Shown piece after piece: positions 36,123-62,123 of a stretch of DNA of 64,000 nt. The notes below the pieces were generated by a model. The model worked only from the letters and a program-made list of their open reading frames with translations. It made no database searches and was not told the origin of the DNA. The translations under genes and the position numbers were made by a program. Numbering within the stretch: the stretch's first letter is position 1; every line of letters starts with the position of its first letter. The DNA comes from Rhodothermales bacterium (lineage in GTDB: Bacteria > Bacteroidota > Rhodothermia > Rhodothermales > JABDKH01). The stretch covers positions 6,760 to 70,759 of the forward strand of contig JABDKO010000243.1 of the NCBI GenBank assembly GCA_013002165.1, read 5' to 3'.

Positions 36123-36536
36123 ATGAACAATGACGAGCACACACTTGATCTGATTCTCGCCAGCGATCCGTCAAAGCTCGACTGGTTGGTTAACAAAGTC
36201 GAGGCGTTCTTGCAGGAGCGGATCGACGACGAAGAGTTCATTTATCAGGTCGTGTTATTGACATCCGAGTCGGTTACCAACGGCATGGAGCACGGAAATG
36301 AGTTTGATGCTGACAAGAAGGTATTCGTCTCACTGCGTGTTTTCACCACGTACGTACAATTACGTGTTTCCGATGAGGGTGCTGGATTTGATCGCGCCGA
36401 TGTCGTGGACCCCTTAAAGGAGGACTCTCTGATGCTGGATGGCGGAAGGGGATTGTTTCTTATTGAGCAGATGGCTGATTCCGTCGTCTACGAAGACGGT
36501 GGTCGCACCGTCATCATGCGTATTAAAAGGTCGTAA
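36123..36536 (+). CDS. RsbW/SpoIIAB-like anti-sigma-factor-type serine kinase (HATPase_c only)
   Basis: 137 aa with an N box (ESVTNGMEHGN), a G1 box (DEGAGFD) and a G2 box (GGRGLFLI). Confidence 0.7.
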   Translation: MNNDEHTLDLILASDPSKLDWLVNKVEAFLQERIDDEEFIYQVVLLTSESVTNGMEHGNEFDADKKVFVSLRVFTTYVQLRVSDEGAGFDRADVVDPLKEDSLMLDGGRGLFLIEQMADSVVYEDGGRTVIMRIKRS

Positions 36537-55945: not shown

Positions 55946-56024
55946 ATGTGAGGTGTGCGGACGTCAAGAATGGGCACGCTACGGTCAGTGCTGGATTATA
56001 GTTCCGCGGTTCTCTAAACAACCA

Positions 56025-56052
56025 AACCCGGAATCCATTCGGATTCCGGGTT
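56025..56052 (-). terminator. Hairpin terminator downstream of the GvpL/F-domain gene
   Basis: Perfect 12-bp stem AACCCGGAATCC-ATTC-GGATTCCGGGTT, 29 nt after the stop. On the minus strand it is followed by the T-rich TGGTTGTTT. Confidence 0.6.
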
Positions 56053-56080
56053 CGTGACGACGATCAATACCTTCGACTGA

Positions 56081-58453
56081 TCAGGCAGAAACGGTACGTT
56101 CTGCGTTTGACGGTTCACCGACAAAGTGGTACGGGGGCCAGGGACCGTGTATTTCGAATCGGAACCCGAGTTCTGAATACTCAGAGCCGAGTCGAGAAAT
56201 TTCGTCTCTCAACAAATCTTGTTTTTCAATCGGTACCAGATAAGCTGCATTGAGTACGATATTATCCTTTGATTGTCCACGGTCATCCATGGATGGCTTG
56301 AAGAGCCCATCGGTCGCGCATTCCATAAGGGATGCGTGGCTTCTGGAAGAGCAGTGCTGTGACATCAGCTCGATCGCCTGTTCGCCATCAATCTTGTTCA
56401 GGCGCTCCATTTCCTCCTTAACGAAGTCTACAACTCCGATGGAGATAGACCCGAGTGAGCTTTCGACGAGTCGGTCGCTTTCAGCAACTTTCGCTGCAAG
56501 CTTCTCTTCGTCTCGATAGATGCGAACGCTCCATTCTTGCTTGCCCTCGATCTTCTGCAAGACGGTCTGATAATGGTCCTCATTGCGCTCAAGCAGTTGT
56601 ATCACCTCCTTTTCATTGCGGTAGACGGTACAAAAGCGCATTGGGATAATGGTTCTGTCGGTATTCAGCGATTCAAGAACCGCAGAATGGAGCTTCACTT
56701 TTTCCTTGAGCCATTCTTTGTCCTGTAGCTTGACTTTGAACGTATCGCCACTGAATTCAGCCACGGGAACGAACGATACGGCTGCACGCAGGCTGCCGTA
56801 GCCAACAATCTCGACCGACCGGTTGGCATCGATTCCTGTTGACGGAAGGTCATCGTCAGTCGGAACCGAACCTTCAGATAGGATTCCGTAGACGTACAGA
56901 GCATCCTCACCATCGTCTGATTGTGCCTCAGAACCGAGCGGTACTGCTGCCTCGATCAGAGAAGATTTGCCCTGGATTGCGGCCTCAACGTCGGCGGGTG
57001 TGTCTGCCGAAAGAACACTGTCGAATGGTTGTTCGATAATTCCAACGGAGTCGTCTCCGGTTATCACTGCTTCTTCGGACTCTACAGGTTCGATATCAAT
57101 GGTGTCATCGATATCGTCGGATTCGACTGTTTCCCAACCACTAACAGGCGAGTTCGGACTGGCGAATTTTGCGCCTTCAGATTCAGTAGCCGGACTGTTT
57201 TCATTCGAGCTGTCGGACTCGCCCTTTTCAGCCCACGCATCAAAGTCATTCGACCACTGCTGGTCGCTGAAATCTGAGGAAGTGTTCAGAGCTTCGAGAT
57301 CCTGGCTGGTGGGCCATTCTTCAATTACATTATCTTTGCTGAAGCCACCATTGACATCGCCGGAGCGTTCACTGGCTGTTGACAGCGTGTCTACATCAAA
57401 AGCACTTGCATCGTCAACTTTTTCGGACAGTTCCGAAATGGCAGAGTTTGTGACTTCCTCAAAGAGTCGGGTTGCCAACTCTGTCTGCGCGGCAACGAGG
57501 CGACCGTCGTCATCCTTGATCGACTTGCGAGCCTCTGCTGCTGCATGCTGTGGATCGGCAATTGATCCCAGTCCATGTTCACGAATATCGGAGACCAGCT
57601 TCGTCTGCAACTTGGTAGCCGCATTCTCCACCTCGTTTGGAACAGCATCAAAGTTTCCGTGGATTTCGTCGGCAACTGCATTTGCATCGCTCACCGAATC
57701 GATGGCGCGAGACTCAACCTGGTTGATCAAATTTGTCCGGAGTGCATCTGCAGCGCGTACAATATTATTGTTGTCCTGAGGCACGTTGTCAGCTATCGAA
57801 CGAGCAATTTCCTCTGCATCGGAGATTGCATCCATTGCACGCTCCTCGATTCGGGACAACAGCAGATCTCGCAATTTGCCAACGATTGGATCTACAATGG
57901 TCGTTTCAGCACCAATTCGATTGCTAAGTTCGGCTGCTACTGCATCGAAATCTGCTACCGACTCGGCGGCGCGTGATGTGATGTCGTCAAGGATTTGAGT
58001 CCGTAGTCGTGCTGTTGCCTCGACAAGCTCGCTGCGGTCTTTGTCAATCGAGTCAAAGACTTCGCTTGAAAGTTTGGTCGGATCTGACATCTGCTCCATC
58101 GACCGGGCGTGAATGGCGTCGATCAGTTTCAGTCGAATGTTGCTGACCGCATCAGGTATCAAATTGCTACGATCCCGGATATTCTCGAATATCGCTTCTG
58201 CGGCGACAGTTGAGTCAGACAAAGAACTCATGGACCGGGCTTCTATTTCAGCGACCAATCGTTGAAAGAGACTCTTTGCAGCCTGTTCAAATTCGGGCGT
58301 ATGTGACGCGTCATCGACTAGTGAATCAGCGATTGTCTGCGGTGAGCCCATCTCCTGAATGGCCTGCTGCAAAACTGCGTTCATAAGCTTTTCTTTCAGA
58401 GCGTTTTTGGCTCCTGAAAGCTTAGCGTTGGATTCGGCGGGATTACCTTTCAT
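56081..58453 (-). CDS. Repeat-containing protein with a C-terminal GvpL/GvpF gas-vesicle-protein domain
   Basis: The last 272 aa carry LYVYGI, RAAVSFVPV, KEWLKEKVKLH, IIPMRFCT, QEWSVRIY and the terminal GPWPPYHF. The N-terminus holds eight 44-aa repeats followed by a D/E/S-rich linker. Confidence 0.75.
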   Translation of the reverse strand: MKGNPAESNAKLSGAKNALKEKLMNAVLQQAIQEMGSPQTIADSLVDDASHTPEFEQAAKSLFQRLVAEIEARSMSSLSDSTVAAEAIFENIRDRSNLIPDAVSNIRLKLIDAIHARSMEQMSDPTKLSSEVFDSIDKDRSELVEATARLRTQILDDITSRAAESVADFDAVAAELSNRIGAETTIVDPIVGKLRDLLLSRIEERAMDAISDAEEIARSIADNVPQDNNNIVRAADALRTNLINQVESRAIDSVSDANAVADEIHGNFDAVPNEVENAATKLQTKLVSDIREHGLGSIADPQHAAAEARKSIKDDDGRLVAAQTELATRLFEEVTNSAISELSEKVDDASAFDVDTLSTASERSGDVNGGFSKDNVIEEWPTSQDLEALNTSSDFSDQQWSNDFDAWAEKGESDSSNENSPATESEGAKFASPNSPVSGWETVESDDIDDTIDIEPVESEEAVITGDDSVGIIEQPFDSVLSADTPADVEAAIQGKSSLIEAAVPLGSEAQSDDGEDALYVYGILSEGSVPTDDDLPSTGIDANRSVEIVGYGSLRAAVSFVPVAEFSGDTFKVKLQDKEWLKEKVKLHSAVLESLNTDRTIIPMRFCTVYRNEKEVIQLLERNEDHYQTVLQKIEGKQEWSVRIYRDEEKLAAKVAESDRLVESSLGSISIGVVDFVKEEMERLNKIDGEQAIELMSQHCSSRSHASLMECATDGLFKPSMDDRGQSKDNIVLNAAYLVPIEKQDLLRDEISRLGSEYSELGFRFEIHGPWPPYHFVGEPSNAERTVSA
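57359..58414 (-). repeat. Eight tandem 44-codon (132-nt) degenerate coding repeats
   Basis: Aligned units begin GAKNALKEKL, AAKSLFQRLV, AVSNIRLKLI, ATARLRTQIL, IVGKLRDLLL, AADALRTNLI, AATKLQTKLV and AQTELATRLF. The shared pattern is A-x-x-x-L-x-x-x-L-[IV]-x-x-I-x-x-R-[AS]-[MI]-x-x-[IMV]-S-D. Confidence 0.85.
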
Positions 58454-58927
58454 TGTGCACTACTAATTTTGTCGTTGTATTTCCCGTTGCCGTCAACGAA
58501 TCGTGGTCGTTGATTCGGCGCGTCACGGGTCTGGTATTTATCGTCGGATGTGATCTAGCGAAGAATGGGCCAAACGGATGAGATGGCGTCCACGAGGGTC
58601 AAATTGCTTTAGTTTTATCGACTTCTCGCATGGAGAAATAAGGCGAAATTAATAGTAATGGTCGTCTCAGCACCATTTTTCGCACTTGGGTTTGTCGCAA
58701 CATGAAATAAAAGTGGGTCAGGTCGATTCGATAACAGCGTCTTGGCCGCTTGTCGGGATAAACGAAACAAATACCTTTATATGGGGAAATTTCTGCCGGA
58801 CGTTCTAGTCGATGAAATGCCTGAGAAGTGAGCATCTGCGGGCCATGCTGTCTCAAAGTTTGCAATATCTTATGGCTAGCAGATAGAACAGGCACCGCAT
58901 GCCCTCAATTACACCCACCACTCTCCA

Positions 58928-60559
58928 ATGAATAATTCAGTTTCAAGCATCCCTCCACCAATCAATGAACCGGTTTTGAGTTATGCTCCCGGAAGTCCGG
59001 AGCGGGCAAGTCTCCAGGCAAGACTGGCGGAAATGAAAAGTGAGATGGTCGAGATTCCGGCGATTATCGGAGGAAAGGAAGTTCGGTCGCGCGACACTTC
59101 TATTGTTACGCAACCGCATGATCACCATTCACCTCTTGGCACCATTCATCTCTGTAGTTCATTGCAGGTTAAGAAAGCAATCAGCGCGTCACAGGACGCC
59201 CGTGGCGATTGGGCAGCGATGCCCTGGAAAGAGCGGGCGGCGATATTCCTGAAGGCAGCCGACCTTCTGGCCGGACCGTGGAGAGATACCCTCAATGCCG
59301 CCACAATGCTTGGTCAGAGCAAGAACGCGTACCAGGCGGAGATTGACTCGGCGTGCGAGCTGATTGATTTCTTTCGATTCAACGCACACTTCATGCAGCG
59401 GATTTATGAAGAGCAGCCAATTTCATCTGAGGGTATTTGGAACAGAATGCAGTACCGTCCCCTCGAAGGCTTTGTATTCGCGGTTACGCCTTTCAATTTC
59501 ACAGCCATTCAGGGTAATCTTCCTACTGCACCCGCGATGCTGGGAAATACGATAGTCTGGAAGCCTGCCACTACTTCCGTCTACTCGGCCCACTACCTGT
59601 ACAAACTACTCGAAGCGGCAGGATTGCCGCCCGGTGTAATCAATATGGTTCCCGGTCGCGGGGCCAGCGTCGGGGATCCTGTCTTTGCCAGCAAGGATTT
59701 CGCAGGATTACATTTCACCGGATCGACCTCGACCTTCCAGTACATGTGGAAGACGATCGGAAGCACCATCGACAAGTATAAATCCTATCCACGGATTGTG
59801 GGTGAGACTGGTGGTAAGGACTTCATCGTCGCGCACCCGTCAGCAGATCCTCTGGTCGTAGCAACGGCCATCGTTCGAGGTGCGTTTGAATATCAGGGAC
59901 AGAAGTGTTCCGCCGCGTCGCGTGTCTACATACCGCGATCACTCTGGTCTAAGGTCAAGAAGTCAATGCTCGGCCAGTTATCCGAGATAAAAATGGGCCC
60001 TGTGGATGACTTCTCTAACTTTGTCAATGCTGTTATTGACAAAAACGCATACAACAGTATCAAGGCGTATATCACGTCTGCAAAACGTTCGAACTCTGCT
60101 GAAATAATTGCCGGCGGCAAGTGCTCGGATAAAGACGGGTACTTTATCGAGCCCACAGTAATCCTTGCGAGCGACCCCGGCTATCGAACAATGTGCGAGG
60201 AGATTTTTGGACCGGTCGTCACGATATACGTTTACAAGGATAAGGATTTTGAATCGACTCTCGATCTTGTGGACCAGACATCTCCGTATGCCTTGACCGG
60301 AGCAATATTTGCACAGGACCGCGCCGTGATAAATATGGCTACCGACAGGCTAGTCGACTCGGCGGGAAATTTTTATATCAACGATAAACCAACCGGTGCG
60401 GTGGTCGGTCAACAGCCCTTCGGGGGTGCACGAGCGTCCGGCACGAATGACAAGGCGGGCTCGATTTTGAATCTACTGCGCTGGGTCTCCGCAAGATCGA
60501 TCAAAGAAACATTTAATCCCGCCTCACATTTTGCCTACCCGTTCCTGGGAGACGAGTAA
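58928..60559 (+). CDS. pruA: L-glutamate gamma-semialdehyde (1-pyrroline-5-carboxylate) dehydrogenase
   Basis: 543-aa ALDH-family protein with GETGGKDF and the catalytic Cys in GQKCSAASR. The long N-terminal arm is typical of monofunctional P5CDH. Confidence 0.85.
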   Translation: MNNSVSSIPPPINEPVLSYAPGSPERASLQARLAEMKSEMVEIPAIIGGKEVRSRDTSIVTQPHDHHSPLGTIHLCSSLQVKKAISASQDARGDWAAMPWKERAAIFLKAADLLAGPWRDTLNAATMLGQSKNAYQAEIDSACELIDFFRFNAHFMQRIYEEQPISSEGIWNRMQYRPLEGFVFAVTPFNFTAIQGNLPTAPAMLGNTIVWKPATTSVYSAHYLYKLLEAAGLPPGVINMVPGRGASVGDPVFASKDFAGLHFTGSTSTFQYMWKTIGSTIDKYKSYPRIVGETGGKDFIVAHPSADPLVVATAIVRGAFEYQGQKCSAASRVYIPRSLWSKVKKSMLGQLSEIKMGPVDDFSNFVNAVIDKNAYNSIKAYITSAKRSNSAEIIAGGKCSDKDGYFIEPTVILASDPGYRTMCEEIFGPVVTIYVYKDKDFESTLDLVDQTSPYALTGAIFAQDRAVINMATDRLVDSAGNFYINDKPTGAVVGQQPFGGARASGTNDKAGSILNLLRWVSARSIKETFNPASHFAYPFLGDE

Positions 60560-61655: not shown

Positions 61656-62123
61656 GTGGACAGCACGACATTCAGAACAACATTTCTACTTGAAGCTCCG
61701 ACAAGGGCAATAGGATTTTCGCGGGTCTATCTTCGATTTGTGGCCATCGTGATGCTCCCTCTGATGATCGTTACGTTGTTTGCGGCCCTGGAGGGATCGA
61801 CCATCCTTCCCTATTTGTACCGCGGATATCCCGGAGGCTTGCTCCTTGCTTTTGCTATGTCATACTATTGGATGCGCACCGTTCCGGCAATGGTGATTGT
61901 AGATGGTTCACTGGTCGAGGTGCGGACTGTACACGAAGCCTACTACAGGAAAACTGATGGCCTCAAAAGCCCCGCCTACGTCATTGACCTGGATCAAAGT
62001 GATGAGGGTATATCCGTGACCGTCGGCCTTGACACGTATACTCTGAAGGCCAGCGATTGGCAGGAGTACGATGAGATGAAAGTCGCGTTGCAAAGCGCTC
62101 ACCTGATCTATCAGAGCCTCTAG
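61656..62123 (+). CDS. Hypothetical two-TM membrane protein
   Basis: GTG start, two hydrophobic helices and then a soluble ~80-aa domain. No family recognised. Confidence 0.4.
   Translation: MDSTTFRTTFLLEAPTRAIGFSRVYLRFVAIVMLPLMIVTLFAALEGSTILPYLYRGYPGGLLLAFAMSYYWMRTVPAMVIVDGSLVEVRTVHEAYYRKTDGLKSPAYVIDLDQSDEGISVTVGLDTYTLKASDWQEYDEMKVALQSAHLIYQSL

Follow-up and report, generated by a model that had tools for sequence, protein, structure and literature searches.

What does a gas-vesicle protein domain do at a chromosomal locus that holds no other gas-vesicle gene? This question was raised by a single gene on a 64,000-nt stretch of DNA from a Rhodothermales bacterium (GenBank assembly GCA_013002165.1, contig JABDKO010000243.1, positions 6,760 to 70,759 of the forward strand), the whole of which is called the window below. 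Canonical GvpF and GvpL are single-domain accessory proteins of ~250-280 aa that are encoded in gvp clusters, and both are essential for gas-vesicle formation. To our knowledge, the GvpF fold is so far known only from gas-vesicle assembly, and discussion of it has been confined to gvp clusters. A first-pass annotation of the window, made from the letters alone, had described an open reading frame (ORF) in which a C-terminal GvpL/GvpF domain is joined to a long repeat module, and had proposed as its first reading that the GvpF fold was recruited beyond canonical gas-vesicle assembly. The ORF was found exactly as it had been described (Table 1). Its product belongs to a family of soluble, strongly acidic cytoplasmic proteins that has not been described before and has so far been seen only in genomes labelled as Rhodothermales or Bacteroidota, and the gene is inherited vertically at a fixed housekeeping locus. 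We see an even chance that the protein, passed on by vertical inheritance, acts in the cytoplasm as a scaffold or adaptor independent of gas vesicles and would use its GvpF-fold domain to bind clients.

Architecture of the protein and its family

The protein (86 kDa, isoelectric point (pI) 4.35) consists, from the N to the C terminus, of a head motif, 44-aa helical repeats, an acidic disordered linker and, at the extreme C terminus, the GvpF domain. It is identical to an NCBI entry named 'MAG: GvpL/GvpF family gas vesicle protein [Rhodothermales bacterium]' (MAG, metagenome-assembled genome), and neither a transmembrane segment nor a signal peptide was predicted in it. The net charge per residue was -0.10, compared with a window median of -0.028, by which the proteome-wide acidity of a salt-in halophile was ruled out as the cause of the acidic composition. 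A full-length AlphaFold2 (AF2) model was built from a 45-sequence family alignment and had a predicted template-modelling score (pTM) of 0.44.

The C-terminal domain matched the Pfam family GvpL_GvpF (PF06386) with 157.2 bits (cut-off 23.6, E 1e-45) over profile positions 1-244 of 245, and the conserved core residues of the GvpF family are kept in it. AF2 modelled the domain with a predicted local distance difference test (pLDDT) score above 90. In a Foldseek comparison with the PDB the only significant matches were 6l5d and 4qsg (target template-modelling score 0.75-0.78, E 1e-12 to 1e-13, probability 1.00), and phmmer also matched 6l5d at E 3e-06. The domain that had been recognised from its sequence pattern was thus corroborated both by profile and by fold. 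The two structures are those of cyanobacterial GvpF (4QSG from Microcystis, 6L5D from Anabaena), with which the protein shares the same two-lobed fold, the full-length PF06386 match and a GPWPPYHF-type C-terminal motif. It differs from them in that the identity is ~20%, ~517 extra residues precede the domain, and neither a gvp cluster nor a GvpA partner is encoded nearby.

The more specific NCBIfam profiles were matched far under their cut-offs, and for this reason the protein is regarded as a member of the GvpL_GvpF domain family and not as an orthologue of GvpL or GvpF. The GvpL equivalog (NF045778), which was the best NCBIfam match and covered residues 519-780, gave 52.6 bits vs a cut-off of 200, and the GvpF equivalog (NF052351) gave 36.6 bits vs 350. 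The likeness to GvpL, which in haloarchaea and bacteria acts as the hub of the nucleation complex for gas vesicles, lies in the common Pfam family, in this best NCBIfam match and in a scaffold role, which has been proposed for GvpL (PMC7688916) as it is here, but the GvpL partners GvpJ, GvpK, GvpM and GvpG are absent from the neighbourhood. The canonical single-domain length is exceeded as well, since the 120 nearest GvpF-domain proteins measure 203-414 aa (mostly ~270 aa) vs 790 aa. When 156 GvpF domains were placed in a neighbour-joining tree, the fusion proteins and four truncated fusion fragments formed one clade.

The eight 44-aa repeats of the first-pass annotation were recovered by self-similarity and by a repeat hidden Markov model (HMM). 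The BLOSUM62 self-similarity at offsets of 44, 88, 132 and 176 residues was 0.565, 0.62, 0.375 and 0.23, whereas the maximum in 500 shuffles was -0.054, and the HMM placed eight copies in the 790-aa protein at a spacing of 43-45 residues. Pairwise identity among the eight units was only ~19%, which indicates that the array is old. Tandem Repeats Finder detected no tandem repeats in the DNA, and the 44-aa repeat is present at the protein level only. Each unit was predicted by AF2 as a long helix (~26 aa) and a short helix (~12 aa) with a pLDDT of about 62-86, and the repeats are predicted to form a helical-hairpin array. These ~44-residue two-helix tandem units resemble HEAT-like repeats and alpha-solenoids, but the module had no HEAT, TPR or Sel1 match in Pfam even at E<=1 and the packing of its units was not reliably predicted. 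No structural analogue was obtained for the array because the AF2 model of the N-terminal module alone was too poor, and a profile of the N-terminal module compared with PDB sequences gave only insignificant matches of the helical-bundle or apolipoprotein type, with no gas-vesicle protein at E<=10.

Within the N-terminal module the head motif is the best-conserved part across the family. Its identity to the two closest orthologues was 59-64%, vs 47-48% for the other repeats, in which just 3 indel columns per 305 residues were counted. The head helix is non-amphipathic (hydrophobic moment about 0.1). A function of this cationic helix as a membrane anchor was ruled out by a hydrophobic moment of 0.02-0.18 and by the lack of a transmembrane segment.

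The acidic linker that had been placed behind the repeats was also found, as a stretch of 150 aa in which AF2 gave a pLDDT below 50 across residues 349-513. It was 27-28% identical to the linkers of the two closest orthologues, with many indels. Linkers in the family as a whole range from 72 to 337 aa and are net negative in almost all members. Besides a second island (Table 1), the linker contains a Trp-centred motif that reads FSDQQWSNDFDAW in the window protein and in which F395, Q398, W400 and S401 are invariant among the three closest proteins. Many family members have related W-motifs (SWKVTEFRP, WRTNSIWEGDE and others), likewise picked out by eye, and in many of the linkers the motif sits 40-70 residues N-terminal of the GvpF domain. 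Repeats that are nearly free of indels, a GvpF domain that is 64-68% identical to those of the two closest orthologues and a linker that is 27-28% identical make up a conservation pattern that would be expected of two folded modules and a disordered tether under purifying selection.

Table 1. Positions in the window of the fusion gene, of the parts of its product and of the flanking elements
Feature	Position (nt)	Strand	Residues	Remarks
Complete ORF	56081-58453	-		790 aa, ATG start
Head motif NAKLSGAKNALKEKLMNAVLQQAIQEMGSPQTIA	58328..58429	-	9-42	Conserved across family alignments; overlaps repeat 1
Eight tandem 44-residue repeats	57356..58411	-	15-366	Self-similarity, repeat HMM, AF2
Acidic linker	56903..57355	-	367-517	39 D+E vs 4 K+R, pI 4.05; predicted disordered
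Trp-centred motif FSDQQWSNDFDAWAEKGE	57218..57271	-	F395-E412	Within linker; spotted by eye
Second linker island IEQPFDSVL	57011..57037	-	473-481	E474, Q475, P476 and F477 invariant in the three closest proteins
GvpL_GvpF domain	56120..56902	-	518-778	Pfam, Foldseek, phmmer; GPWPPYHF motif at end
Terminator-like hairpin and T-rich tail	56013..56054	-		12 perfect pairs (14 with G-T), 4-nt loop
Divergent intergenic spacer	58454..58927	.		474 nt; shared with Aldedh gene 58928-60559 (+)

The extent of the family was determined by an exhaustive HMMER (phmmer) search with residues 1-360 alone against 1.84 billion representative proteins. It returned 45 representative proteins, 26 of them at E<=1e-10, and PF06386 was present in 39 of the 45, always at the extreme C terminus. 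All four parts (head motif, 44-aa repeats, acidic linker and C-terminal GvpF domain) are found in the window protein and in 39/45 representatives, and at least 39 clusters at 50% identity have the repeat + GvpF architecture. With the profile of the 44-aa unit the number of copies found was 2-11 per protein, and 3-11 for most full-length members, at a spacing that was nearly always 44 or a multiple of 44, and complete members span 513-1889 aa. Word-indexed searches were weak, with three matches for the full protein and seven for the N-module profile, probably due to low-complexity words. The named members come from MAGs labelled Rhodothermales, Rhodothermaceae or 'Bacteroidota' and from two Rhodocaloribacter, namely the cultured thermophile Rhodocaloribacter litoris (WP_228350556.1, complete 4.5-Mb genome) and a Rhodocaloribacter sp. 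The genome scan relied on one peptide pattern and returned five loci, so the true range is at least this wide.

The fusion architecture that the first-pass annotation had thought possibly uncharacterised is therefore real and is absent from the searchable literature, but it is not unique to this genome. Its members already carry the automatic NCBI name 'GvpL/GvpF family gas vesicle protein', and the GvpF domain itself was already known and automatically annotated. Pfam, NCBIfam, PADLOC, PHROGs and PDB sequences offered no match for the architecture, for the repeat module or for the conservation of the fusion at a non-gvp locus throughout the order.

Repeats of a second kind were also observed. 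One subclade has an additional expansion of a 74-residue repeat, and at the related locus L018 the gene looks split into a 375-aa ORF (L018:8838-9965) and a gene for a 1438-aa GvpF protein (L018:10001-14317). The 375-aa ORF contains the family head motif and 74-aa repeats, and these repeats, within which the gene is divided, show 39-46% identity to the N-terminal 500 residues of the 1438-aa protein. A second type of repeat seems to have expanded recently, and the division would be either a frameshift or a genuine split.

Genomic position and transcription unit

The gene lies in a conserved order, in which a divergent Aldedh gene precedes it and a gene for a LolE-like permease (MacB_PCD/FtsX), AhpC, MoaD and MoaE follow. 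This order was shared by 11 loci (the window and L001, L002, L008/L009, L010-L014, L016 and L018), with AhpC missing from L016 and L018. The neighbour proteins at the syntenic loci were 50-83% identical to those of the window, whereas the fusion proteins were 24-50% identical in the N-terminal module and 33-69% in the GvpF domain, from which it follows that the locus is ancient and the fusion gene fast-evolving. The comparison showed that the gene has been inherited vertically at a fixed housekeeping locus. The family was also found in two non-syntenic contexts (L015/L017 and L019), which likewise lack gvp genes.

The end of the gene is marked by a hairpin whose inverted-repeat arms (56025-56036 and 56041-56052) lie 28 nt past the stop codon and which stands between the fusion gene and the downstream LolE-like gene. 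All nine syntenic loci tested have a strong GC-rich hairpin (-26 to -37 kcal/mol) 8-35 nt after the stop codon, and in most of them a T-run follows it, while the stem sequences are unrelated between loci. The hairpin is taken as a conserved intrinsic terminator and the gene as its own transcription unit. The first-pass annotation had called the gene monocistronic on the grounds of a 474-nt upstream spacer and a perfect 12-bp downstream hairpin; both are present, and the finding of the terminator in 9/9 loci indicates that the fusion gene is indeed monocistronic. The window gene itself displays the complete Rhodothermales arrangement, including the terminator after the gene.

Gas-vesicle genes were searched for with tblastn, for which the queries (GvpA/J, GvpK, GvpG, GvpO, an AAA_5 GvpN-like ATPase, a CDC48-type ATPase and cluster ORFs of unknown function) were taken from canonical clusters. 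Nothing better than E 0.06 was found in the window outside the GvpF domain. A GvpA/J HMM recovered 5/5 positive controls at E 1e-22 to 1e-37; when the window and 12 family loci, together 270 kb, were translated in all six frames, it had no match at E<=10. The Pfam scan of 20 further window ORFs revealed no gvp family and no GvpN-type (AAA_5/CbbQ) ATPase. The ORFs scanned were ordinary chromosomal ones, encoding S8 and M1 peptidases, proteins with type IX secretion system tails, MiaA, a Xer-type recombinase, the LolE-like permease and aldehyde dehydrogenases, and the remaining window genes are of the nusA-infB-rbfA-truB-pnp housekeeping type. Taken together, the searches revealed no GvpA/J, GvpK, GvpG, GvpO or GvpN gene, either in the 64-kb window or in the 10 kb flanking each side of 13 related loci, so the statement that no GvpA-like or GvpN-type gene exists in the window withstood all three kinds of search. 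The fusion gene is thus not part of a gvp cluster, while the positive-control clusters L003, L005 and L007 were recovered as such. The three nearest non-fused GvpF proteins examined (30-35% identity) were all encoded within canonical gvp clusters (Gas_vesicle, GvpK, GvpG, GvpO, AAA_5).

Possible functions

A recruitment of the GvpF fold beyond canonical gas-vesicle assembly is favoured by the housekeeping position at 11 loci, by the terminator at 9/9 loci and by the lack of gvp genes nearby. The wider claim, that the GvpF fold has in Rhodothermales a second, GvpA-independent role in which it builds or organises an intracellular structure or serves as a scaffold or chaperone for a helical or hydrophobic client, may in our estimate equally well hold or fail. 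During gas-vesicle assembly the primary partner of the hydrophobic N-terminal GvpA helix is GvpF, which binds it transiently and in the manner of a chaperone, and GvpL serves as a central scaffold to which other accessory proteins are drawn (PMC7688916, PMC11445434). The mechanism of GvpF and GvpL is not explained by the two crystal structures (PMC11445434).

By analogy with GvpF and GvpA, the GvpF domain of the fusion protein would take hold of a partner by a segment that is helical or hydrophobic. This partner could be a separate client or another copy of the fusion protein, which would present its head or Trp motif in trans, and in that case self-assembly would be possible. The repeat array would serve as an elongated platform with a length that could be tuned by copy number, and the acidic linker, acting as an entropic tether, would provide reach and solubility between the platform and the GvpF domain. 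Such a scaffold or adaptor would work without the gas-vesicle shell protein GvpA.

Other natural fusions of the GvpF fold were observed in canonical metagenomic gvp clusters, where GvpL_GvpF+DnaJ proteins of 348-352 aa are encoded (L003:6789-7835, L005:1156-2214 and L006:1223-2281) and other GvpF paralogues adjoin. They resemble the window protein in that the GvpF fold is joined to a second module but differ in that this is a J-domain, in the total length of ~350 aa and in the position of their genes within gvp clusters. These fusions would fit a chaperone or adaptor role of the GvpF fold, with recruitment of Hsp70, and are an independent hint that the fold may deliver clients to other machinery.

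If the scaffold/adaptor reading is true, the GvpF fold is a general interaction or chaperone module and not a gas-vesicle-specific part, and the family offers a tractable one-gene system, free of paralogous GvpA, GvpJ and GvpS clients, in which to learn what the fold binds. The name 'gas vesicle protein', given automatically in genomes that perhaps have no gas vesicles, could mislead the inference of traits from MAGs. For gas-vesicle engineering, the natural GvpF fusions of this family and of the DnaJ type hint at a use of the fold as an adaptor.

Several points weigh against the scaffold/adaptor reading. Its mechanism was inferred from the domain anatomy and from the analogy with GvpF and GvpL. 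How the repeat array is arranged in three dimensions is uncertain, as judged by the full-length pTM of 0.44 and the pLDDT of 55 of the model of the N-terminal module alone, and the Trp motif was recognised by eye. The bootstrap value of the fusion clade in the GvpF tree was weak (41/200), for which reason its monophyly is not taken as strong evidence. The synteny with the LolE-like gene may reflect vertical inheritance only. Finally, the search for gvp genes covered the window and flanks of 10 kb on either side of the related loci, and a distant gvp cluster may be present elsewhere in the genome.

This last point leads to the explanation that survives best among the alternatives, although we consider it unlikely, namely that the protein is a true gas-vesicle accessory that combines GvpF/L with GvpC-like repeats and acts on a gvp cluster elsewhere in the genome. 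The strong GvpL_GvpF profile and fold matches and the retained core residues agree with it, the negative result for gvp genes is limited to the window and the flanks of the loci, and the automatic NCBI names point in the same direction. GvpC, the external strengthening protein of gas vesicles, is likewise built of helical repeats (33 aa, or 32-40 aa in haloarchaea) that vary in copy number, and it has an acidic region. The period of 44 aa with two helices per unit is, however, different from that of GvpC, and the repeat module had no match to GvpC in Pfam and none to any gas-vesicle protein among PDB sequences at the threshold given above. Against this alternative also stand the fixed housekeeping position, which is kept across deep divergence, including in a hot-spring thermophile, and the result that no gvp gene was seen in the 64-kb window or around the 13 related loci. 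The canonical GvpF/L genes examined were all inside clusters, the scores are far under the GvpL and GvpF equivalog cut-offs, and nothing in the searchable literature connected Rhodothermales with gas vesicles or with proteins like GvpF.

A second alternative is that the protein is a self-assembling, cytoskeleton-like element or an organelle tether, in which the GvpF domain would bind the head helix or the Trp motif of the next molecule. The spacing of the polymer would then be set by the repeat array, with a logic comparable to that of acidic repetitive adaptors such as MamJ. We hold this to be distinctly unlikely, also as regards the polymer spacing. The head motif and the Trp and EQPF islands are conserved within regions that otherwise evolve fast, the repeat number and hence the protein length are highly variable, with the 74-aa repeat expanded in one subclade, and GvpF does bind a short helix of GvpA (PMC7688916, PMC11445434). 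Nevertheless, the proposal is purely inferential; the head helix lacks amphipathic character, and the Trp motif is missing from part of the family, in which several linkers contain no Trp at all.

It is more doubtful still that the protein is an output or scaffold of a STAS-domain partner-switching system, or that it takes part in envelope-lipid or lipoprotein trafficking with the adjacent LolE-like permease; either would be improbable in our judgement. A gene of one STAS subfamily (51-56% identical, DSTGLGA motif) adjoins the fusion gene in the two non-syntenic contexts, L015/L017 and L019, and the LolE-like permease lies directly downstream at all loci with Rhodothermales synteny. However, no STAS gene was found within 10 kb on either side in the window or at any locus with this synteny, the strong terminator stands before the LolE-like gene in 9/9 loci tested, and synteny within one lineage can be purely historical. 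The STAS genes themselves are located at L015:11621-11959, L017:10860-11198 and L019:9122-9481. They start 28 nt downstream of the fusion gene in L015/L017 and ~520 nt upstream of it in L019, where two additional STAS paralogues were seen 9 kb away.

That the gene is left over from a gas-vesicle cluster since lost, and is now decaying without a function, is barely credible: the GvpF domain is an orphan and the gene is split or frameshifted in L018, but intact ORFs of 513-1889 aa are kept across at least 39 divergent clusters, with a GvpF domain that is 64-68% conserved and retains its core residues, nearly indel-free repeats and a conserved terminator.

Upstream region and neighbouring genes

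The spacer between the fusion gene and the divergent Aldedh gene has counterparts of 347-550 nt in those relatives where a called upstream gene bounds it, and in L014 it is cut by the contig end. Islands of conserved sequence were found in it only in the three closest relatives, and no Rfam family was detected in the spacer or anywhere in the window. A sigma54-like -24/-12 element, TGGCCCATTCTTCGC (GG-N10-GC), is located at 58558-58572 on the minus strand, ~119 nt before the start codon and facing the fusion gene. The pattern TGGC-N7-T[TC]GC was present in the window and in L002 and, as a one-base variant, in L001; it was absent from six more distant loci. We regard the element, with low confidence, as a candidate for a sigma54-type promoter upstream of the fusion gene. 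Further upstream islands are TTCTCAGGCATTTCA (-374), GGCAGAAATTTC (-344, of which a variant occurs in 5/9 loci) and GTCGATAA (-169), and they may belong to either of the two divergent genes. The spacer also contains a 98-aa ORF with a GTG start (58599-58895, minus strand), for which the called genes of related loci include no equivalent; it is unlikely to be a real gene.

A small HATPase_c_2 protein resembling the anti-sigma serine kinases RsbW/SpoIIAB is encoded at 36123-36536 on the plus strand of the window, directly after a 1405-aa S8 peptidase/FG-GAP protein. Its gene lies 20 kb from the fusion gene, and no STAS partner was seen in the window. In L017, genes like those of an extracellular contractile injection system (L017:12013-20832) adjoin a short-form family member and are probably unrelated to it. 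The set includes eCIS_core, an AAA ATPase, YbjN and a 1718-aa protein with a weak Apolipoprotein match. A 155-aa ORF without a Pfam match was observed at 61656-62123 (plus strand) of the window, between a diaminopimelate-dehydrogenase-like gene and a GntR gene. It is considered a real gene, because proteins 31-51% identical to its product are encoded in the same position in L001, L002, L010, L011 and L012.

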